From the sequence record MN850577.1: a stretch of DNA of 64,000 nucleotides, one strand, 5' to 3'. Both the position numbers and the translations under genes were made by a program. The notes beneath the pieces were generated by a model. It was not told the DNA's origin. It saw only the letters and a program-made list of their open reading frames with translations, and ran no database searches. The stretch's first letter is position 1; the number at the start of each line of letters is the position of its first letter. Of the stretch, positions 4,056 to 40,763 are shown one piece after another. This stretch comes from Escherichia phage heid.

Positions 4056-4254
4056 TGTTATTTTTTACTACTTTTAAAACCGCACGATAGCCTAAGCAAT
4101 AGGAATCACCGAAGAGCGACCGACCCATGAAGGAGTCCTCTGTAATATCTTTCGCCGTGACGGTTTTTTCTACGCCGTGAAAGAGAACTACATCACCGAC
4201 TTTAATATCTTTGATGTGTGTAGTTTCAATGGTTAAACCGTTAATAATAGCCAT
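4051..4254 (-). CDS. Hypothetical small early protein (67 aa)
   Basis: ORF with family A element upstream. Confidence 0.5.
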   Translation of the reverse strand: MAIINGLTIETTHIKDIKVGDVVLFHGVEKTVTAKDITEDSFMGRSLFGDSYCLGYRAVLKVVKNNK

Positions 4255-4346
4255 TTTTGAATCTCCAGTTTAGGACTTTATTTAGTGGGGAAGGTCATTC
4301 CCGCCCCGTTGATGTGTAATTTAATCTATCTGAAAACCAATGTCAA
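4255..4346 (-). promoter_or_regulatory. Family A early promoter/5' UTR element: -35 TTGACA (4341-4346), 17 bp, -10 TAAATT (4318-4323), stem-loop 4287-4307; A-tract upstream of -35
   Basis: Hexamers and spacing read from sequence; T12 run at 4347-4360. Confidence 0.55.
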
Positions 4347-4360
4347 CAATTTTTTTTTTT

Positions 4361-4765
4361 TTAGAGTTCTGCATAAATTGCATCACAGATACCACGAAAA
4401 TCATGATTTGTCAAATTACGTTGTAACCAAGTGGCGAAAAAGTCAGCGATTGCAAAGTTAGCGTCATACTCGACAGATAGCCACACTTTAACAGCAAACC
4501 GAAACATTTTCAAATCAAGCTCTTTATTCATTACCTTAGATTTGCCTAACATGTCGGACATTTCATATTGTGCACCGTCTAGCGTGATACCTGCTGCAAC
4601 GTCAGCCAATGAGTTTTTTACGTTTTCAACGTCTAAGATAACGCTTTGAATCTTCCCAATAATGTTGTGCAATGTTTCGTCCGGTGCTGATGACGTAATA
4701 ACATTAATCCGGTTAACGGTCAAACGTGCTTTTAAGATTGATAACTCGCGATTATTAATAGCCAT
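4361..4765 (-). CDS. Hypothetical early protein (about 134 aa; ATG at 4765, the track start is a TTG)
   Basis: SD GGAGAA 7 nt before ATG. Confidence 0.5.
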   Translation of the reverse strand: MAINNRELSILKARLTVNRINVITSSAPDETLHNIIGKIQSVILDVENVKNSLADVAAGITLDGAQYEMSDMLGKSKVMNKELDLKMFRFAVKVWLSVEYDANFAIADFFATWLQRNLTNHDFRGICDAIYAEL

Positions 4766-4856
4766 TTTTAAGTTCTCCAATTTAGGATTTAGTGGTAAAG
4801 CTCTTTATCTGGGGCTTACTTTATCGAACTATAAGCCCCTTGTAAAGTACTTTATA
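4766..4856 (-). promoter_or_regulatory. Family B intergenic element (palindrome 4841-4856 containing stop codon 4852-4854, hairpin 4811-4839)
   Basis: Conserved repeat copy. Confidence 0.45.
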
Positions 4857-5124
4857 CTAAATGCAGCTTTTTACCTTTTACTATGATGTAACTCGATGCG
4901 CTATTGCTTTGCACATCCTGATAAATTCTGCGCAAACGGCCTTCGTAGTATACTTTCCAACTGGTTGGAATCTTTTTCCCGTATCCTGTAGCAGTTTTTT
5001 GTAGTCCTGCAAGTTGCCAATCTAAGATATGTTGTTCGGCTTGTAAATCCTCGAAGTGCATTACACCGTTCACATAGTGACGAAGGGTTACGTTTAAGGT
5101 GCGACCGTTGTTAGTAGTATACAT
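4852..5124 (-). CDS. Hypothetical small early protein (90 aa)
   Basis: ORF with family A element upstream. Confidence 0.5.
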   Translation of the reverse strand: MYTTNNGRTLNVTLRHYVNGVMHFEDLQAEQHILDWQLAGLQKTATGYGKKIPTSWKVYYEGRLRRIYQDVQSNSASSYIIVKGKKLHLV

Positions 5125-5215
5125 TTTGAATCTCCTAGTTTAAGGACTTTGTTTAGTGGGGAGGTCATTACCTCCCGTTGATTAGTAATTTACTTGTTTT
5201 AAAAACCAAAATCAA
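5125..5215 (-). promoter_or_regulatory. Family A early promoter/5' UTR element: -35 TTGATT (5210-5215), 17 bp, -10 TAAATT (5187-5192), stem-loop 5157-5176
   Basis: Conserved element; the -35 overlaps the upstream stop codon. Confidence 0.5.
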
Positions 5216-5544
5216 GAGAAATTTTTTCGTTTGCTCAATTCTTGAACAATTACAGCGTAGTAGTCTTTTAAGTCACTGACATTTAAAGCATTTATCAGAG
5301 AATTATAATCATCGACTAACTGAAAATCATCTTTGAAAATGTCGCTGATTTGATAAGTTTTTGATTGAAATCTGAAGCTCATTTCTAACCGTTTTATTTG
5401 TTCATCACTTAAACGCTCCAGAAAGCTCATTACAAGGCTATTATTGACCTGTTGCGTGATTGCCTTATTTGCTAGATTATAGGCTTTATATGCCTTATAT
5501 AGCGCGAAAATGGCAATGATTGCAGTGATACCAGTCATTAACAT
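5212..5544 (-). CDS. Small membrane-anchored protein (110 aa)
   Basis: N-terminal hydrophobic segment MLMTGITAIIAIFALY; SD AGAGGAAA. Confidence 0.5.
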   Translation of the reverse strand: MLMTGITAIIAIFALYKAYKAYNLANKAITQQVNNSLVMSFLERLSDEQIKRLEMSFRFQSKTYQISDIFKDDFQLVDDYNSLINALNVSDLKDYYAVIVQELSKRKNFS

Positions 5545-5834
5545 GGTGTTTCCTCTTTACGTGATACTTTGCCATTTACAGTTATCTCATAAGAATCTAG
5601 TAAGTCACTTTTAGATTTTACTGGACTTTTAAAAGTATCATCATAAATATTTACTTGCAATACAGGTTTTTTATACTCCCTGCAACTATTCCATAAACAA
5701 ATCACTACACGACGGCCTTTTATTTTACCGTGCAACCATTCCATAACATCATGATTATTTCTTGATGTCTCGATAAAATCAATTTTGTTGAGTAACTTGC
5801 TTAGATTTTCACGAACTTTATTGGATAATTTCAT
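5538..5834 (-). CDS. Hypothetical small early protein (98 aa)
   Basis: ORF with conserved SD context. Confidence 0.5.
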   Translation of the reverse strand: MKLSNKVRENLSKLLNKIDFIETSRNNHDVMEWLHGKIKGRRVVICLWNSCREYKKPVLQVNIYDDTFKSPVKSKSDLLDSYEITVNGKVSRKEETPC

Positions 5835-5926
5835 TTTTGAGTCTCCTAGTTTAAGGGTTAATTTGATAAAGCTCTTTATCTGGGGCTTAAGATATCAACT
5901 TTTAAGCCCCTTGTAAAGTACTTTAT
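5835..5926 (-). promoter_or_regulatory. Family B intergenic element (hairpin 5882-5910 with stem GGGGCTTAA/TTAAGCCCC and a different loop; palindrome 5911-5926)
   Basis: Stem conserved while the loop differs from the other copies. Confidence 0.45.
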
Positions 5927-6183
5927 CAGATTAAATTGCCAGTTAATGATAAGTGCATTTTGTAACCTTGTTTAGTGAATACGTTCACTTTACCGAGTGT
6001 TTTTACACCTTTAAAAAGGTTATTTGAACTGCGTTTTAAGGTTAAATGTTTATCAGCCTTCACGCCCCACCTTACATTAGATTGTTTTCCGTTGTCAACC
6101 ACTTTCCCGCATAACTTTTTAGCCATAACGCGAGCGTCATCACGAGTTTTTGCAGCAATTACAACGTTTTTGATAATAGCCAT
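5926..6183 (-). CDS. Basic hypothetical small protein (about 85 aa; ATG at 6183)
   Basis: ORF; same SD context as 4361-4765. Confidence 0.5.
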   Translation of the reverse strand: MAIIKNVVIAAKTRDDARVMAKKLCGKVVDNGKQSNVRWGVKADKHLTLKRSSNNLFKGVKTLGKVNVFTKQGYKMHLSLTGNLI

Positions 6184-18168: not shown

Positions 18169-18443
18169 TCAAAAGTTACGTTTGTTACTGCCATTGCAGA
18201 TTTGCATTTTGCAGGGTCTACAACGTGATAAAGTACACTACAGTTACCTGTGCTGTCTGGTACAGGCTTTACCCATTGCTGCTTTATAGTTGGCTCTCCT
18301 AAGTCTTTGTAAGAGCCATCTGTAAAGTTGTTTACCATCTCAAGTGCAATTGGTTCTGGAACATGACCACGTATCATGTACATCTCACAACCATTACCAC
18401 CTTCACTGACTAATGGTAAAATCTCCCACTTCTCTTTAGCCAT
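18165..18443 (-). CDS. Hypothetical protein (92 aa), co-operonic with the NAD salvage pair
   Basis: ORF whose stop overlaps the start of the downstream gene. Confidence 0.4.
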   Translation of the reverse strand: MAKEKWEILPLVSEGGNGCEMYMIRGHVPEPIALEMVNNFTDGSYKDLGEPTIKQQWVKPVPDSTGNCSVLYHVVDPAKCKSAMAVTNVTFD

Positions 18444-18951
18444 TATAAGTTGCCCTATAAACTGTCTCGAACTTCAACAGGAGAGATATTGCCAAATCTG
18501 TATAGTTGTTGTCAAGCACATCTGGCATATTGTTTTTGATATATTTCTCTTGCTCTTCATAGGTCATCTTAGGTGTACTTAGGAGGCTATCTCCTTGCTT
18601 CTGGTTATCAGCTTTAGTTTGGATAAACCAGTTTGCACAGTGATGTTCACCACCTTTTGTAACAGGTTTGTGGTGACCTAATGTAAATGTTTGCTTACCC
18701 GTATACCTGCAAAGATTGTTCAGTGTTGCAATGGTGTTCTTCACAACACACCATTCATACAGGTTATCTATTGTGTAGTGTGGGTAATAACGGACAAGTG
18801 CTCTTTCACGGAAGTTATCACGATTCCAAAGAACCATGTGATTAGAATTTGAAGGGTCATATTTGTGGGAGTCTATAAACTCTTGACGCTCATCAAAGCT
18901 GAGTCTTAGAACTGACATTGCAACCGAACGTTTCAGGTTTGACAGATACAT
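18436..18951 (-). CDS. HNH-like endonuclease (171 aa), tentative
   Basis: Partial HNH pattern GHHKPVTKGGEHHCANW (HH..P...GG....N). Confidence 0.3.
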   Translation of the reverse strand: MYLSNLKRSVAMSVLRLSFDERQEFIDSHKYDPSNSNHMVLWNRDNFRERALVRYYPHYTIDNLYEWCVVKNTIATLNNLCRYTGKQTFTLGHHKPVTKGGEHHCANWFIQTKADNQKQGDSLLSTPKMTYEEQEKYIKNNMPDVLDNNYTDLAISLLLKFETVYRATYNG

Positions 18952-29403: not shown

Positions 29404-29901
29404 TCAAGCACAATTTGCTTTCATTACCTTATGGATTCTTTTTTCAGCATCTTCATAAGTTTCTTTAGTGATAAACTTAATTGCTGCAATATTGGCATTG
29501 TAGAAGAGTCTGAGCTTAGAGTCAATCCTTTTTGTCATTACATCGAATTTATGTTGAAGGTTTGCTTCACCATAGACTAGGCCACCTTTTGTGTAGTAGG
29601 TCTGAATAATGTAAAAGTCAAAAAATTCTTTTCCAAAACTCTCAATATCTTTTTTAATATACTCAGAAGAAGTCTCATAAGTCATCCAATCACTTTCCTT
29701 AGTGACTATCTTCTTCCGAGTCTTCCCAGCAACTTTTCTTTTGGTCACACTGTTAAACTGTTTCTTTCCGATATAATATTGTCCAGTCTTCTTACAGTGC
29801 ACTAAATAGACAAAGCCAAAATGTTTAGTGGGGTCAACTTCCCCACATAAAGATACCCAATGACCGTAGGTAGGGCAATTGCCAAATCCTTTAATCTTCA
29901 T
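29404..29901 (-). CDS. GIY-YIG-like endonuclease (165 aa), tentative
   Basis: FVYLVHCKKTGQYYIGKK matches the (G)IY-x10-YIG spacing. Confidence 0.35.
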   Translation of the reverse strand: MKIKGFGNCPTYGHWVSLCGEVDPTKHFGFVYLVHCKKTGQYYIGKKQFNSVTKRKVAGKTRKKIVTKESDWMTYETSSEYIKKDIESFGKEFFDFYIIQTYYTKGGLVYGEANLQHKFDVMTKRIDSKLRLFYNANIAAIKFITKETYEDAEKRIHKVMKANCA

Positions 29902-30422
29902 TCATAAGCTTCTCCGTGATTTGAAAACTCTTTATGTAGTTCTTCTCTTTTCTTTGTGACTGCATCTTTGGCATCTTCAATACTGTCAAAATACCCCAGA
30001 AAGTGAGATACTCCGTGTGTCATAACTCTGGCCTTCCATTTTTGGTTAGCCTTATAGAAAGATACACCCTTAACTCCAGATGTGTTGTTGGAGTGTGTTC
30101 TTCTATTCCAAGAGTTTTCAGCTTGTGTGCAAACCCTTAGATTTAATCTCCGATTATCATTAGTAATACCGTTTCGATGGTCTACTCTGTTAGGTAGGAA
30201 ACCGTCTGTGTACAGGATTGCTAAATCATGAGCCATATAGGGTTTTCTTTTAATTTTTATCCTAATATAACCTCGCTTATGTGGTGTACCTGCAATGGAA
30301 CCTATAACTGTTCTTTTAGCTGATTTCTTTATCCACGTAAAGACCCCTGTTTCGGGGTCATAGTGTAGATATTCTTTAAGTATCTGCTGAGTCAACATTT
30401 GGAGTCCAACCATACTTTTCAA
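29898..30422 (-). CDS. HNH homing endonuclease with AP2 DNA-binding domain
   Basis: HNH motif VDHRNGITNDNRRLNLRVCTQAEN; AP2-like GVSFYKANQKWKARV...GYFDSIEDAKDA; paralog of 39990-40502. Confidence 0.65.
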   Translation of the reverse strand: MKSMVGLQMLTQQILKEYLHYDPETGVFTWIKKSAKRTVIGSIAGTPHKRGYIRIKIKRKPYMAHDLAILYTDGFLPNRVDHRNGITNDNRRLNLRVCTQAENSWNRRTHSNNTSGVKGVSFYKANQKWKARVMTHGVSHFLGYFDSIEDAKDAVTKKREELHKEFSNHGEAYE

Positions 30423-31422
30423 ATGAAAAAATATCTGATTTATTTCGCTCTTGATAAGCTAGGAAGAAATGCTGTTCCATTAACTCTAACGGCGTCTTTG
30501 TAACGGTCTGTCCATCCCATGACACATAGGTATAAGAGTCTTTTTTAGCATAAAGTTCATAGATAGCGTCAAGACACTCTTTGTAGGTCTCTTTACCCTC
30601 TAAAGCATTCATCACAGCTACTTTACCAGCACCTTTTAGGCCGAAGTAGTTGTCTGCATTATCTCCAGCAACAGCCTGATAACACAAGAATTTAAAACCT
30701 ACACCAACTGTTTTTGCAGCTTTTGGTTTTGATTTGATAGGGCAATCCCAGATATTACCAACATTATTATCAGCGATAAAAATTAGTGGTGATTTTTCAT
30801 AAGTCATATCAATACAATAAGTCCCTTCAGCTTGTCGAAGGTCTTTGTCAATACTCATAAGAGCAGCTTTCTTACCCATCTTTTCAGCTTTAGCAATTAC
30901 GATTGAATCGGCTTCGAAGCCTCCCCTTAAGAGTTTGAACTCTGGTCTTGACAGAAGATATTCACGACAAGCAACTAAGTGTGTTGGTGTGACAGCATCT
31001 TTACGGTTACCTTGATATTGGTGCTCAAGACCTTTAATGTCTTTATGTTTATGCACACCTTTCTCTGTTAAGTAACCTACCCAAGTTCTCTCTTTACCAA
31101 CAACCTTAAGCCATTCCTGAAGAACCTGTTGAGTAGCCATGATAGCTTCTTTTTCACTCTTAGCTTCTTTCCAAGTCTGTCTTTCCCATTCATCTTCATC
31201 AAATGTCAGGCCAAGTTCTTCCACAAGGATTCTCTGGTCTGCTAACCATCTTGCAGCATCTTTCGCATTATCAAATGGTTCAGATTCTTCTGCTGTGAGT
31301 TTATTGACATATTTATATTTTGCTTTCTCAACTACACAAGCACCTTTATAGGCAATACTGTCAGAGTCAATAAAAACATGTGTAACTGAATCGGGAAGTT
31401 TTGTTAATGTGTACTTCTCCAT
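30376..31422 (-). CDS. FEN-family 5'-3' exonuclease / flap endonuclease (RNase H-like)
   Basis: N-terminal VFIDSDSIAYKGA and H3TH-like AGDNADNYFGLKGAGKVA. Confidence 0.55.
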   Translation of the reverse strand: MEKYTLTKLPDSVTHVFIDSDSIAYKGACVVEKAKYKYVNKLTAEESEPFDNAKDAARWLADQRILVEELGLTFDEDEWERQTWKEAKSEKEAIMATQQVLQEWLKVVGKERTWVGYLTEKGVHKHKDIKGLEHQYQGNRKDAVTPTHLVACREYLLSRPEFKLLRGGFEADSIVIAKAEKMGKKAALMSIDKDLRQAEGTYCIDMTYEKSPLIFIADNNVGNIWDCPIKSKPKAAKTVGVGFKFLCYQAVAGDNADNYFGLKGAGKVAVMNALEGKETYKECLDAIYELYAKKDSYTYVSWDGQTVTKTPLELMEQHFFLAYQERNKSDIFSFEKYGWTPNVDSADT

Positions 31423-37033: not shown

Positions 37034-37290
37034 GTAAGCCTCTTTTAAGTAACTATTAAGTTTTAATCTTTTATCTTAACGTATTCTATACGTTATACTT
37101 TAAAGCTTTTTAAAAGCTATTAAATAATCTTTTAAGAGTTTTAAAGTATCTGTATAGTTAAACTGTTAAGTAACCTTTTAAGTAAAAACCCACTTCGCAA
37201 AGATTAACACCTTGTCAAGTACATTGTCAACTTGCTTTTTATAATTTTTTGCAGTAATGTATGAGGTTAATGATTTTAGAGGGAGTAAAA
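37034..37290. promoter_or_regulatory. AT-rich divergent intergenic region at the strand switch, with repeated CTTTTAAG motifs and TTGTCAA/TTGACAA elements
   Basis: 257 bp non-coding between the divergent operons; motifs read directly. Confidence 0.4.
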
Positions 37291-39990
37291 ATGGAAAACG
37301 TAGATTTTAAAAACTTACATTTGGTTGGTGATACAGAAACTGATGGTTTACTCCTTGAGTTCACTAAAGTTCACGTAATGGCCTTTGCAGACTATAAATC
37401 TGACGATGAAGAGCCACCTGTATGGGTCTTTACAGATGAGCCTATCCTCGGTCACAAGTACACTAAGTACATCAAGGGCGGCTTACGTGAAGGTGTTGAA
37501 TTTGCGTTAAAGGCAAAACGTCTTTGCATCCATAATGGTCTCGGCTATGACTGGTGGGTTTTCAATCACATTGCGCCTGATTTATGGAACTTTGATAATC
37601 CAAAATGTAAGCCGTGGAGTAATTTCTTTCAGGATTCTCTTATCCAGTCTCGTGTTCAGTGGATGGATAGGCCAACCCCAAAGGGTTATAAAGGTGCTCA
37701 TGGTTTGGCTGCATGGGGTGCTCGTGTTGGTGTCCGTAAACCAGAGATTGAACATTGGGGTGTGTGGAATGCAGAAATCTTCACTCGTGTTGTAGAAGAT
37801 ATCCGTATTAACGCCAAAACTAAACGGGCACTTGATAATGAGTATCTCAAGCTTAAGAAGTGTGGCATAGATACTTATGAAACCTATATGCGAGCTAAAG
37901 AAACATCTTTCTGGATGAGTCAACAAGCTATCAATGGTTGGAAAGCTGATAAGGAGCTTATGGAGTTCCATGTAAAGGAACTTGACAAGTTGACTAATGA
38001 GCTTGCTTCAGAGGTTGAACCACATCTACCTCCAACTATTAAGACCAAAGGTAAAGTCACTGGAGAAGAGTTTGCAAAAGCTTGGAATGAGTATGTTGAA
38101 GCATTTGGTCATGCAGATGGACTGAAAAGAATTACCAAGTACCCTAAGACAAAGTATCGTCAGCAGGTACGTAATGGTGAGATGCAGACTTATGAAATCA
38201 AACCATTTGGTAAGCCAACTACAAAGATTTTTAACATTGAAAAAAGGAATTGCTATACACCAACCAACTCTGTAACTGGTGAAGAGTACAAGGAGGGTTT
38301 TGTAGCAATGAAGGATGCTCGTGAAATTTGCAATGAGTTGAATGCAAAGATTGGTAAGAAATGCAAAGACTGGAAGCCAGTAAAAACAGTCAAAACTGTG
38401 AAGTACTATAACAGTCACGTTGTTAACCACTTTGAACTTGAGTCAAGTCGCTACACAGGTTTGATTGATGCACCGTATACACCAATTGAGTTTGAAGTTT
38501 CTCGTATGACTCAGGTAGCAGTTGTTAAAGACTACTTGAAATCAGTTGGTTGGATTCCAGATGACTGGAACTACAAGAAAGACTCAGATGGTCGCCCTGT
38601 CAAAGTTTGTCGTTTCAAAGACAATAAAAAGATGATTACAAAACATCCTAAGTGGCAGGAAATGGTTGAGCGGTGTGGTTTGAGCTATGTTGAGCACGAA
38701 GGTGTACAGTATATTGAGCATAACTGGTCTGTGAAGAAGTACACAGATTTGCTTGAGCCTTGCTTAATCCGTACTTCACCAAAACTTACTGAATCATCTT
38801 ATGATACGATTGAAGGTGAGCTTGGACAGAAGATTGCGAAATACTACACTTTGATGCACAGACGCAGAACTATTGAGAACTCAAAGGATGATGAAAAAGG
38901 TTGGTTGAACCAGATTCGTCCTGATGGTCGCCTTAGTGCTGGTGCAATGGTGTTTGGTACTTCAACTGGACGTATGACACAATATGGTATTGTAAACGTA
39001 CCGTCTGGTGCTGCTGTCTATGGGGAACCAATGAGGGCAGTGTGGATTTGTGAGGAAGGGACTAACGTTGTCTCTGTAGACATGAACTCAGCCCAGCTAG
39101 TTCTTCTTTGTAACTTTATGGGTGACAAAGACTTCACCAAAGCGGTAACGCAAGGTAAAGAAGAGATTGAGTTCATTCGTCAAGAAGATGGACGCTATTA
39201 CTGCAAACATTTTGATGAGTATCTCAACCCAGAAATTGATAAGTACCTTCGCTATGACTCTGAGAATGACCTGTACGTTGTCTATTCAGGGACTGATGCA
39301 CATACACTGAACAGTATTTACTTTAGCTTGAATGATGAGCAGGATATCTTGACTTGTCGAGCTACTCAGGATGAGAATCTTCTTCATGAGATTAGCAAAG
39401 GTCGTAAGAAAGCTAAGAATGGTATCTATGCACTGCTGTTCGGTGCAGGTGATGAGAAGTTTGCTAAGACGATTAAAGCTGCAACTACTCAGGAAGGAGC
39501 ACTGACTAAACAGACTTACTTTATTCGTTTGCCTAAAATTAAGAAGCTGCTAGATGACTTGGAAGCTGACTACAAAGCAACTAAAAAGGCACTTGAAGAG
39601 GTGTTTGGTAAGACTGCTGCAATCTCTAAAGGGGGTTTTGTAAAGGTTGCTGGAGCTTGGTTGTGGTGTAAATCTCCACATAAGTTATTGAATTATTTGC
39701 TCATGGGTTCGGAAAGTCAGATTCAGAACGAGGCAATTAACCTTGCTTGCCGTCGTATGATTGACGAAGGTTTGATGAAGTTGAACGGTCGCAAACCAGC
39801 TATAGGTGCTCGTTTATTGTGCTCCTATCACGATGAGACGAGTTGGGAATGCCCAGAAAGTATGACGGCAGAGGTGAAGGCTGTCACTGATTGGTATTAT
39901 GGACAAGCCTCTAAGAACTTAGGGCTTAAGAGTGAAACACTAGTAACTGGTACTGGTAAGGTTGGTAAAAGCTGGTATGAGGTACATTGA
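37291..39990 (+). CDS. Family A DNA polymerase with N-terminal 3'-5' exonuclease domain (about 899 aa; ATG at 37291)
   Basis: Exo motif GDTETDGL; size; SD GGGAG before ATG. Confidence 0.75.
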   Translation: MENVDFKNLHLVGDTETDGLLLEFTKVHVMAFADYKSDDEEPPVWVFTDEPILGHKYTKYIKGGLREGVEFALKAKRLCIHNGLGYDWWVFNHIAPDLWNFDNPKCKPWSNFFQDSLIQSRVQWMDRPTPKGYKGAHGLAAWGARVGVRKPEIEHWGVWNAEIFTRVVEDIRINAKTKRALDNEYLKLKKCGIDTYETYMRAKETSFWMSQQAINGWKADKELMEFHVKELDKLTNELASEVEPHLPPTIKTKGKVTGEEFAKAWNEYVEAFGHADGLKRITKYPKTKYRQQVRNGEMQTYEIKPFGKPTTKIFNIEKRNCYTPTNSVTGEEYKEGFVAMKDAREICNELNAKIGKKCKDWKPVKTVKTVKYYNSHVVNHFELESSRYTGLIDAPYTPIEFEVSRMTQVAVVKDYLKSVGWIPDDWNYKKDSDGRPVKVCRFKDNKKMITKHPKWQEMVERCGLSYVEHEGVQYIEHNWSVKKYTDLLEPCLIRTSPKLTESSYDTIEGELGQKIAKYYTLMHRRRTIENSKDDEKGWLNQIRPDGRLSAGAMVFGTSTGRMTQYGIVNVPSGAAVYGEPMRAVWICEEGTNVVSVDMNSAQLVLLCNFMGDKDFTKAVTQGKEEIEFIRQEDGRYYCKHFDEYLNPEIDKYLRYDSENDLYVVYSGTDAHTLNSIYFSLNDEQDILTCRATQDENLLHEISKGRKKAKNGIYALLFGAGDEKFAKTIKAATTQEGALTKQTYFIRLPKIKKLLDDLEADYKATKKALEEVFGKTAAISKGGFVKVAGAWLWCKSPHKLLNYLLMGSESQIQNEAINLACRRMIDEGLMKLNGRKPAIGARLLCSYHDETSWECPESMTAEVKAVTDWYYGQASKNLGLKSETLVTGTGKVGKSWYEVH

Positions 39991-40502
39991 TGAGAGATTG
40001 TGGATTCACACATGAACAGTTAAAGTCTTGGTTAGATTATGACCCCGAAACAGGGGTCTTAACATGGATTGGCAGACCTCCACATAGTAGTAGGGTGGTT
40101 ATTGGAAGCCAAGCTGGAGCAATTAAGCGCACAAGGTCTGGTGTGTATATGCACACACAGATTTTAGGATACAGGACAGGCAATCACCGAATTGCTTGGT
40201 TCTGGATGACAGGTAAGTGGCCTGATAAACACATTGACCACAAAGATGGAGATGGTTTGAATAACGCTTGGGACAATCTAAGGGAGGCCACAAAAGAACA
40301 GAACATGTCTAACAGGAGACAACCTAGAACATCAAAAAACTTAAAAGGTACAAGTAGAAGCAAGTCTGGTAAGTGGATAGCCCAGATTAACCATAATGGT
40401 AAGACTATACATATAGGGACATACACAACAGAAGAAGAAGCCCATAAAGCTTACTGTGAAGCTGCTATTAAACTCCACGGAGAGTTTGCAAAACTAAGTT
40501 GA
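39990..40502 (+). CDS. HNH homing endonuclease with AP2 domain, overlapping the polymerase stop
   Basis: YDPETGVLTWI, HNH motif IDHKDGDGLNNAWDNLREATKEQN, AP2-like KSGKWIAQINHNGKTIHIGTYTTEEEAHKAY. Confidence 0.65.
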   Translation: MRDCGFTHEQLKSWLDYDPETGVLTWIGRPPHSSRVVIGSQAGAIKRTRSGVYMHTQILGYRTGNHRIAWFWMTGKWPDKHIDHKDGDGLNNAWDNLREATKEQNMSNRRQPRTSKNLKGTSRSKSGKWIAQINHNGKTIHIGTYTTEEEAHKAYCEAAIKLHGEFAKLS

Positions 40503-40553: not shown

Positions 40554-40763
40554 ATGAGCCATCGTGGAAGAACCCATGCAGCGATGATGAAAGGCGCTTC
40601 AAAGGAAACTATCAAGAACCGTAAGCAGAAGTTGTTTGAGAGAATGAACAGGTTAATTGACAATTCATCTCTTTCAGGTTCTGAGAAGGTTTTCTTGAAA
40701 GGTAATCTGAAAAGCATTGCACAAGAACTTATTGACATTGAGTATTGGAGACATCAAAAATGA
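40554..40763 (+). CDS. Hypothetical protein (69 aa)
   Basis: ORF with SD TAGGAGGA. Confidence 0.45.
   Translation: MSHRGRTHAAMMKGASKETIKNRKQKLFERMNRLIDNSSLSGSEKVFLKGNLKSIAQELIDIEYWRHQK

Follow-up and report, generated by a model that had tools for sequence, protein, structure and literature searches.

Two polymorphic HNH-AP2 genes at the ends of replication genes in a Felix O1-like phage are probable free-standing homing endonuclease genes

The genome of Escherichia phage heid (MN850577.1) carries two paralogous genes, HNH-A and HNH-B, that probably are free-standing HNH(HNN)-AP2 homing endonuclease genes and would constitute intronless homing cassettes. When relatives are compared, presence or absence of a gene and polymorphism among alleles are found at exactly the two junctions where HNH-A and HNH-B lie, in genomes that are otherwise collinear and 90-99% identical. 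An earlier reading of the DNA without database searches (the sequence-only reading) had proposed this comparison, and had named two further open reading frames, one GIY-YIG-like and one HNH-like, among the likely insertion hotspots and sites of gene conversion. Comparative genomics supports free-standing homing endonucleases at HNH-A and HNH-B, but not at a neighboring GIY-YIG ORF nor at an ORF at 18436-18951. HNH-A and HNH-B belong to an already known kind of element, and are annotated as homing endonucleases in near-identical phages.

The stretch analysed here (the window) is 64 kb long and is the genome of a Felixounavirus, or Felix O1-like phage. About 260 GenBank phage records match the regions around both HNH-AP2 ORFs, nearly all of them Felixounavirus or other Ounavirinae, with Escherichia, Salmonella, Shigella and Citrobacter as hosts. 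At locus A, the junction of an exonuclease gene with the GIY-YIG ORF, the closest matches are Felixounavirus NRG857CP1 and Escherichia phage bumzen (99.7-99.8% identity), and the annotation of bumzen names the three ORFs corresponding to 29404-31422 ‘GIY-YIG homing endonuclease’, ‘HNH homing endonuclease’ and ‘5'-3' exonuclease’. We compared locus A across 31 related loci, from three GenBank phages and 28 IMG/VR contigs, and locus B, at the end of the polymerase gene, across 29 related loci; full-length copies in GenBank were counted out of 258 records for HNH-A and out of about 260 for HNH-B. A tblastn search of the 64-kb window recovered no third HNH-AP2 gene and no Endonuclease VII-type gene, and NCBIfam returned no matches for the four proteins considered (HNH-A, HNH-B, the GIY-YIG ORF and ORF 18436-18951). 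Coordinates of all features are collected in Table 1.

Table 1. Positions of the features discussed, numbered from the first base of the window.
Feature	Coordinates	Strand	Remarks
ORF 18436-18951, conserved	18436..18951	-	phrog_3500 (no known function); possible HNH-like motif LGHH...N...N
GIY-YIG ORF, SegE-type catalytic domain	29404..29901	-	165 aa; outside the mobile cassette
HNH-A, free-standing HNH_3 + AP2 endonuclease gene	29898..30413	-	171 aa from ATG 30413
Palindrome/hairpin GACCCC-GAAACA-GGGGTC in HNH-A	30342..30359	-	within the 23-nt identity 30340-30362
5'-3' exonuclease gene, conserved, upstream of HNH-A	30376..31422	-	phrog_107
Endonuclease-linked substitution block, exonuclease 3' end	30408..30464	-	from alignment, ~57 nt
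Family A DNA polymerase gene, conserved, upstream of HNH-B	37261..39990	+	uninterrupted in the window
Polymerase last six codons including stop, HNH-B-associated form	39973..39990	+	TGGTATGAGGTACATTGA vs empty-site TGGCTTGAAGTACACTAA
HNH-B, free-standing HNH_3 + AP2 endonuclease gene	39990..40502	+	170 aa
Palindrome/hairpin GACCCC-GAAACA-GGGGTC in HNH-B	40041..40058	+	within the 23-nt identity 40038-40060
HNH-B last 69 nt	40434..40502	+	94-100% identical across otherwise unrelated alleles; absent at empty sites

Both HNH-AP2 ORFs exist as intact paralogs, their proteins aligning at 34% identity over 164 residues (E 3e-22). They lie on opposite strands, HNH-A on the minus strand, a point on which the sequence-only reading was silent, and HNH-B on the plus strand. 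The mechanical ORF of HNH-A reaches back to a TTG at 30422, and the ATG at 30413 is the start annotated in bumzen, which is 99.7% identical. The YDPETGV motif that had been picked out as common to the two proteins is real, and is accompanied by an exact 23-nt identity at the DNA level in two places in the window. An HNH catalytic motif had also been proposed, and both proteins pass the curated Pfam cut-off for HNH_3 (PF13392, 24.8 bits), HNH-A with 31.1 bits and HNH-B with 53.9 bits, and keep the D-H...N...N motif intact. The catalytic D-H...N...N...N residues (D83, H84, N92, N96 and N108 in HNH-B numbering) are invariant in nine diverse alleles, both window proteins included. The proposed AP2-type domain is recovered by Pfam (PF00847, cut-off 33.3 bits) in HNH-B, at 38.1 bits, but falls below the cut-off in HNH-A, at 17.6 bits; HNH-A nevertheless aligns with HNH-B through the AP2 region. 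Among solved structures, the AP2 part of HNH-B matches plant AP2/ERF domains including WRI1 (E 3e-8). Both proteins match phrog_99, ‘HNH endonuclease’, with E-values of 1e-64 to 1e-71, and the match spans the full length of HNH-A. An intron or intein context can be ruled out, since both ORFs occupy their own frames, differing from those of the neighboring genes, and Rfam identifies no intron in the 64-kb window.

At locus A, the first ~12 codons of HNH-A and the last 13 of the exonuclease gene overlap in different frames, and the HNH-A stop overlaps the GIY-YIG start (ATGA). In 17 of the 31 related loci there is no HNH gene, and the exonuclease and GIY-YIG genes overlap each other directly. 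The other 14 have one, as at least four allele classes with protein identities to the window of 98-100%, 84%, ~56% and ~50-54%, between flanking genes that are 90-99% identical. The window's own allele is full-length in 25 GenBank records, and 77 further records match just the first 81-129 nt of HNH-A, which marks them as carrying other alleles at the same site; Felix O1 is among these, its match confined to the first 81 nt. The left boundary of the cassette, exact from the alignment, falls inside the exonuclease gene. Its right end, GGAGAAGCTTATGAATGA, mimics the empty-site sequence GGAGCCGTGTATGAATGA, so that the GIY-YIG gene keeps its ribosome-binding site and start context.

The cassette at locus A is linked to a short block of substitutions at the 3' end of the exonuclease gene. 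From 30464 to 30408 the window is 68-72% identical to empty sites, as against 93-100% for the rest of the exonuclease gene, while the HNH-A carriers L004-L006 are 100% identical to the window over the last ~60 nt of that gene. All 15 occupied sequences have one form of the block and nearly all of the 17 empties the other; two empties, L007 and L025, are recombinant within it. In the occupied form, a change from AAT to GGT (giving TAT-GGT) creates the HNH-A ATG and alters the exonuclease C-terminal tail, which ends in KYGWTPNVDSADT in occupied alleles and in KYNWEPCMNED in empty ones, each followed directly by the stop. Judged from these alignments, the corresponding region of empty alleles is likely the target-site region of HNH-A.

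The arrangement at locus B is similar. That the second ORF starts on the polymerase stop codon was correctly noted from the sequence: the HNH-B ATG shares one base, the A at 39990, with the polymerase TGA (...CAT TGA TG). In relatives the polymerase gene does contain an intron, and the gene in the window has none. Twelve of the 29 related loci are empty, six carry HNH-B at 89-100% identity, and nine carry other HNH-AP2 alleles (39-49%) at the same position; the remaining two, L051 and L052, come from distant phages with no HNH gene after the polymerase gene. HNH-B is full-length in 48 GenBank records, and 99 further records match just its last 69-147 nt. Here too the end of the upstream gene goes with the cassette. 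The polymerase ends in WYEVH, encoded as TGG TA(T/C) GAG GTA CAT TGA, in all seven HNH-B carriers, the window included, and in WLEVH, encoded as TGG (C/T)T(T/A) GA(A/G) GT(A/C/T) CAC T(A/G)A, in 11 of the 12 empties. The carrier-type end places a GAGG, likely a ribosome-binding site, 7 nt before the HNH-B ATG.

These patterns might also arise if HNH-A and HNH-B were ancestral accessory genes that many lineages have lost by deletion, in which case the polymorphism would record decay rather than invasion, and the proteins might be inactive or otherwise used. Some of the polymorphism must indeed be loss and not gain, judging from two kinds of trace. Phage ST11 retains just the last 113 nt of HNH-B, in what looks like a remnant, and the empty-site genomes L047 and L025 bear carrier-type flank footprints, consistent with precise loss. 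A frameshifted HNH allele lies at locus A in L016. Against loss as the whole account, cassettes have crossed between backgrounds. In L053, from another Ounavirinae lineage, HNH-B is 96% identical while the polymerase is 55-72% identical, and the terminal polymerase codons that travel along with HNH-B are identical. In the window itself, HNH-B sits in a polymerase haplotype otherwise seen empty: polymerase sites 39711-39969 follow the haplotype of the empty-site genome L032, and from 39976 onward the window follows the HNH-B carrier haplotype, which places the left recombination junction within the six nucleotides 39970-39975. Moreover, the two window genes run to full length and keep their catalytic motif. 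A homing endonuclease gene is expected to be both gained and lost in the course of its life cycle, and loss alone is thus no substitute for homing; we consider decay without invasion improbable. The gene conversion that had been predicted at the HNH-AP2 sites is supported by this sharp junction and by the endonuclease-linked substitution blocks in the adjacent gene ends.

A different question is raised by how the alleles at one locus are related to each other. Locus B alleles share their last 25 residues at 69-96% identity (94-100% over the last 69 nt), and locus A alleles share their first residues at 89-96% identity, yet in the cores identity drops to 30-52%, and two alleles of one locus resemble each other there no more than alleles of different loci do. 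Shared ends around unrelated cores fit recombinational replacement of the core between conserved segments rather than divergence in place, and the pattern is possibly new for HNH-AP2 alleles. These locus-specific ends and unrelated cores, together with mosaic blocks that are common throughout the 3' half of the polymerase gene, are also what might be seen if it were mainly general homologous recombination between co-infecting phages that moved the cassettes as morons or exchangeable alleles, with conserved stretches at the gene ends and inside the genes serving as homology arms and no cleavage needed. As a full explanation, however, we find this unlikely. Catalytic residues are kept in every allele examined, which argues for selection on nuclease function, and the sharply bounded flank blocks that always accompany the cassette are the signature expected of target-site immunity. 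Several unrelated cores at a single site are not expected of a single enzyme with a single target, which suggests that ordinary recombination contributes alongside homing.

Each cassette is ~0.5 kb long, has no evident promoter, lies where a conserved replication gene ends and in the same direction, and substitutes its own version of that gene's last codons. The substituted codons supply the translation start, as an ATG for HNH-A and as the likely GAGG ribosome-binding site for HNH-B, and differ from the empty allele at several bases. Under the homing interpretation, the enzyme would nick or cut the empty or foreign allele near the junction during co-infection, recombinational repair from cassette-bearing genomes would copy the cassette with a short flank, and the carrier allele would escape cutting through its altered terminal codons. 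We infer nuclease activity, a target site, resistance of the carrier allele, and mobility that is current rather than past. Because the free-standing enzymes of T4 often cut hundreds of bases away (PMC2988022), a target within the linked block is something that we only infer.

The two remaining ORFs behave differently from HNH-A and HNH-B. The sequence-only reading had noted a GIY-YIG-like ORF directly beside the first HNH gene, and this identification is sound: the ORF matches Pfam SegE_GIY-YIG (PF19835) with 98.7 bits (E 3.7e-28, cut-off 25). Across 13 homologs, Y32, Y43, E112 and N135 never vary and R62 hardly does; these residues were mapped to the catalytic residues of I-TevI by motif inspection, and the I-TevI catalytic domain takes the first three places among the fold matches (probability 0.75-0.87, E 0.13-0.38). 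No separate DNA-binding domain is apparent, as the model consists of the catalytic domain and one C-terminal helix, and there is no further Pfam domain. All 31 relatives have the ORF, at an identity (84-100%) that follows that of its flanks; the copy in L030 appears frameshifted. Its nearest relatives in the database lie, without exception, on phage-sized contigs of ~85-90 kb. We read it as a fixed phage nuclease, by prediction, rather than a polymorphic insertion. The ‘NAD synthetase’ label that it carries in phrog_447 and in several GenBank records is, from the Pfam and fold evidence, an inherited mis-annotation.

ORF 18436-18951, described as HNH-like, is only weakly so. It matches phrog_2214, weakly (E 1.8e-6), and its model contains a beta-beta-alpha element at residues 89-121 in which H93, H103, H104, N107 and N116 are invariant; however, Pfam gives no HNH match even at E 10, and the best fold match, to the Gme HNH nicking endonuclease, is non-significant (E 1.6). 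A sequence search of solved structures returned nothing informative for this ORF or for the GIY-YIG ORF. The ORF is nearly universal in relatives: a 1.6-kb query, 32% of which is this ORF, is covered to 80% or more by 218 of 248 related records. Since this ORF and the GIY-YIG ORF look fixed in relatives, they are not polymorphic insertions, and the suggestion of insertion hotspots holds for the polymorphic sites of HNH-A and HNH-B but not for these two. Presence at identical positions in all relatives, combined with a lack of cleavage activity, had been named as a sign of domesticated or inactive proteins; the positional part describes these two ORFs and not HNH-A or HNH-B.

The 23-nt stretch common to the two HNH genes, TATGACCCCGAAACAGGGGTCTT, occurs exactly in both and nowhere else in the window, and contains a perfect 6-bp palindrome with a 6-nt spacer that forms a hairpin in the minimum-energy and centroid folds of both gene contexts. 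In Ounavirinae HNH-AP2 genes, which we grouped into 13 lineages at <90% protein identity, the palindrome lies ~52-55 nt inside the gene, and the codons GAC CCC ... GGG GTC are used by all 12 of the lineages that have the D-P-x-x-G-V peptide. The adjacent Tyr codon, the loop and the downstream codons vary, as do the codons of other conserved Gly, Pro, Val and Ala columns. The hairpin codons, described as the rarest of this genome, make up 3% of Pro (CCC), 8% of Gly (GGG), 9% of Val (GTC) and 38% of Asp (GAC) codons, with a joint expectation of ~8e-5 per gene. Such conservation argues for selection at the nucleic-acid level. The YDPETGV peptide does not by itself account for the element: in ~57 homologs that come from unrelated phages and were chosen by peptide pattern and not by DNA, the peptide is kept while its codons vary freely, and no perfect Watson-Crick stem is present. 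Nor is it a genome-wide repeat, with two copies in 64 kb, both in HNH genes. An intrinsic terminator is not supported, as there is no T-run and the terminator scan made no call, and no Rfam family matches the hairpin. A scan conditioned on the palindrome itself also found the element in HNH genes of 30-47 kb contigs (one of 47.4 kb) with ~49% GC, and in a few GC-rich contigs.

The palindrome could act as an RNA hairpin that limits endonuclease expression, as an operator bound by a dimeric protein, which might be the AP2 domain itself, or as a recombination junction. The AP2 domain of a cyanobacterial HNH-AP2 protein reportedly binds G/C runs. We offer as a tentative idea, well short of the confidence we place in homing itself, that the palindrome is a selected cis-acting element that, with the conserved ends, enables swapping of cores, making the whole a cassette-exchange system for homing endonuclease specificity.

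HNH-AP2 genes have been described in several other phages. Free-standing HNN/HNH-AP2 endonucleases are known from the Xanthomonas oryzae (Xoo) phages Xp10, OP1 and Xop411 (PMC2248197), and HNH-AP2 genes have been counted in the T4-related phages RB49, RB43, RB16 and JSE (PMC2993671). The window proteins share the organization of the Xoo phage proteins, an N-terminal region followed by an HNN-type His-Me finger without cysteine dyads and then AP2, and the Xoo boxes HRLAWLL, WP, DNR, NLRE and EN are recognizable in them as HRIAWFWMTGKWP and NNAWDNLREATKEQN. In the Xoo and T4-related phages, as here, the genes occur in multiple copies per genome, are variably present, and leave degenerate remnants. 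In the Xoo phages, however, no conserved flanks were found, and sequence-independent spread has been proposed (PMC2248197), whereas the window genes keep to fixed sites, with boundaries conserved precisely and flank substitutions linked to the cassettes. The GACCCC-N6-GGGGTC hairpin is not seen in homologs outside Ounavirinae, a few contigs excepted.

The closest functional parallel is T4, for which intronless homing of promoter-less free-standing cassettes is established (PMC2988022). Like MobA, MobE and the seg genes of T4, HNH-A and HNH-B are promoter-less cassettes between conserved nucleotide- or DNA-metabolism genes and are read with the upstream gene, and they share with mob and seg genes presence and absence between relatives, co-conversion of flanks, and replacement of one endonuclease by another at a single locus, for which the T4-type example is SegH and Hef in place of mobC and mobE (PMC2988022). 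They differ in that the DNA-binding region of Mob proteins is not AP2, and in that the window cassettes overlap and rewrite the last codons of the upstream gene. Activity has been demonstrated for MobE and MobA, whereas that of HNH-A and HNH-B is predicted. Among solved structures, a single HNH_3-type homing endonuclease shows sequence similarity to the HNH part, and marginally so (E 0.049): I-HmuI (1U3E), an HNH nicking endonuclease of Bacillus phage SPO1. By analogy, HNH-A and HNH-B may be nicking enzymes that leave one strand intact. I-HmuI, however, is encoded within an intron, and it carries NUMOD and helix-turn-helix modules where the window proteins have AP2.

Within the genus, Felix O1 has six HNH copies (PMC3185647), and its HNH-AP2 endonuclease has been noted in the literature on AP2 evolution, as cited in PMC4237383. 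UAB_Phi87 has only one endonuclease gene (PMC4837284), and endonuclease gene numbers vary between Felixounaviruses (PMC4837284, PMC8300805). The window shares genus and gene family with Felix O1, which has another allele at locus A, and the window alleles differ from those of Felix O1 in having other cores (A1 and B1). The earlier Felix O1 papers cited here do not describe the polymorphism of the sites, their boundaries or the hairpin, and the hairpin in Ounavirinae HNH-AP2 genes is possibly new.

As a statement that this phage carries HNH-AP2 homing endonucleases, the finding matters little, since such genes are already known in Felix O1-like phages. Its practical use lies in phylogeny building and in the engineering of therapeutic or biocontrol Felix O1-like phages: both the exonuclease and the polymerase gene have a hotspot of recombination and gene conversion at the 3' end, and these ends are best left out of trees. 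With the empty and occupied alleles defined here, substrates are at hand for a first set of cleavage and homing assays in the genus. If functional, the hairpin and the pattern of shared ends around unrelated cores would be relevant to the regulation of homing endonuclease genes and to the way in which their specificity changes.

Unrelated HNH-AP2 alleles of the same locus are nearly identical at the ends of the gene, and their cores are only 30-52% identical. This cassette-like mosaic suggests, from the pattern of sequence identity, that the cores of HNH-AP2 alleles may be replaced by recombination. Each of the two HNH-AP2 ORFs in the window, HNH-A after the exonuclease gene (locus A) and HNH-B after the DNA polymerase gene (locus B), also carries a perfect GACCCC-N6-GGGGTC hairpin about 52-55 nt into the reading frame. 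The codons that make up this palindrome are the rarest in the genome, and it is unchanged in all 12 of the 12 Ounavirinae lineages; some 57 homologs from other phages have the same peptide but lack the palindrome.

Coordinates of the features associated with the HNH-AP2 genes and the polymerase gene
Feature	Position	Remark
Perfect palindrome/hairpin, GACCCC-N6-GGGGTC	window 30342-30359 and 40041-40058	one per HNH-AP2 ORF
Near-identical allele ends, locus B	window 40434-40502	matching position in loci L037-L050
Carrier-type flank codons at empty sites	L047 (UAB_Phi87) 5880-5900; L025 and L007, exonuclease 3' end	
Polymerase-gene insert/intron	L060 5281-5564; L055-L059 about 4200-5000	window equivalent ~39432/39433, between polymerase codons ...GIYA and LLFG...

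Some genomes in which the junction lacks the cassette have partial flank codons of the type seen in carriers (L047, L025 and L007). These three are recombinants at no more than 15-60 nt from the insertion point, and such recombinant flanks look like footprints of earlier cassette loss or of partial co-conversion. Apparent frameshifts were seen in the locus-A HNH gene of one relative (L016, about 5010-5521) and in the GIY-YIG gene of another (L030, about 5495-5987), and represent either decaying copies or sequencing errors.

Downstream of HNH-B, the presence of a small 69-aa ORF (40554-40763), or its arrangement with respect to the small ORF that follows, varies between related phages; L032, L033, L037, L038, L045, L048 and L054 are among those that lack it. 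This region is a further indel hotspot beside the cassette. Elsewhere, 128 nt of the HNH-B core recur at 99% identity in Shigella phage vB_SflM_004 (MK295205.1, 55747-56275), beneath a gene whose annotation is thymidylate synthase and with three places in the record. The fragment could mark a third locus, occupied by a copy or remnant of an HNH-AP2 gene.

PHROGs (phrog_447) and many GenBank records call the GIY-YIG ORF that adjoins HNH-A (29404-29901) 'NAD synthetase', a label contradicted by Pfam and by the fold model. Felixounavirus DNA that matches the window at about 93% identity also lies within MG065664 and MG065668 ('Campylobacter phage A132/A126') and GU169904 ('Staphylococcus phage SA1'), which are probably mixed or mis-assigned assemblies.

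The polymerase gene preceding HNH-B is itself interrupted in several relatives by a group I intron (in L060, Rfam RF00028 at 62.1 bits), which is absent from the polymerase gene of the window. For Felix O1, the genome paper counts the DNA polymerase gene among those checked and reports no insertions within them. At the same site as the intron, L055-L059 have inserts of similar size, and an Endonuclease VII-like HNH ORF lies in that of L056. The polymerase gene is mosaic in its 3' third (window 39000-39970 against L048, L049, L050 and L054): in genomes whose N-terminal part is 99-100% identical, nucleotide identity falls to 62-83% from about 39060, and a second breakpoint lies near 39690. Such mosaicism is compatible with gene conversion having taken place repeatedly around the intron and endonuclease sites.
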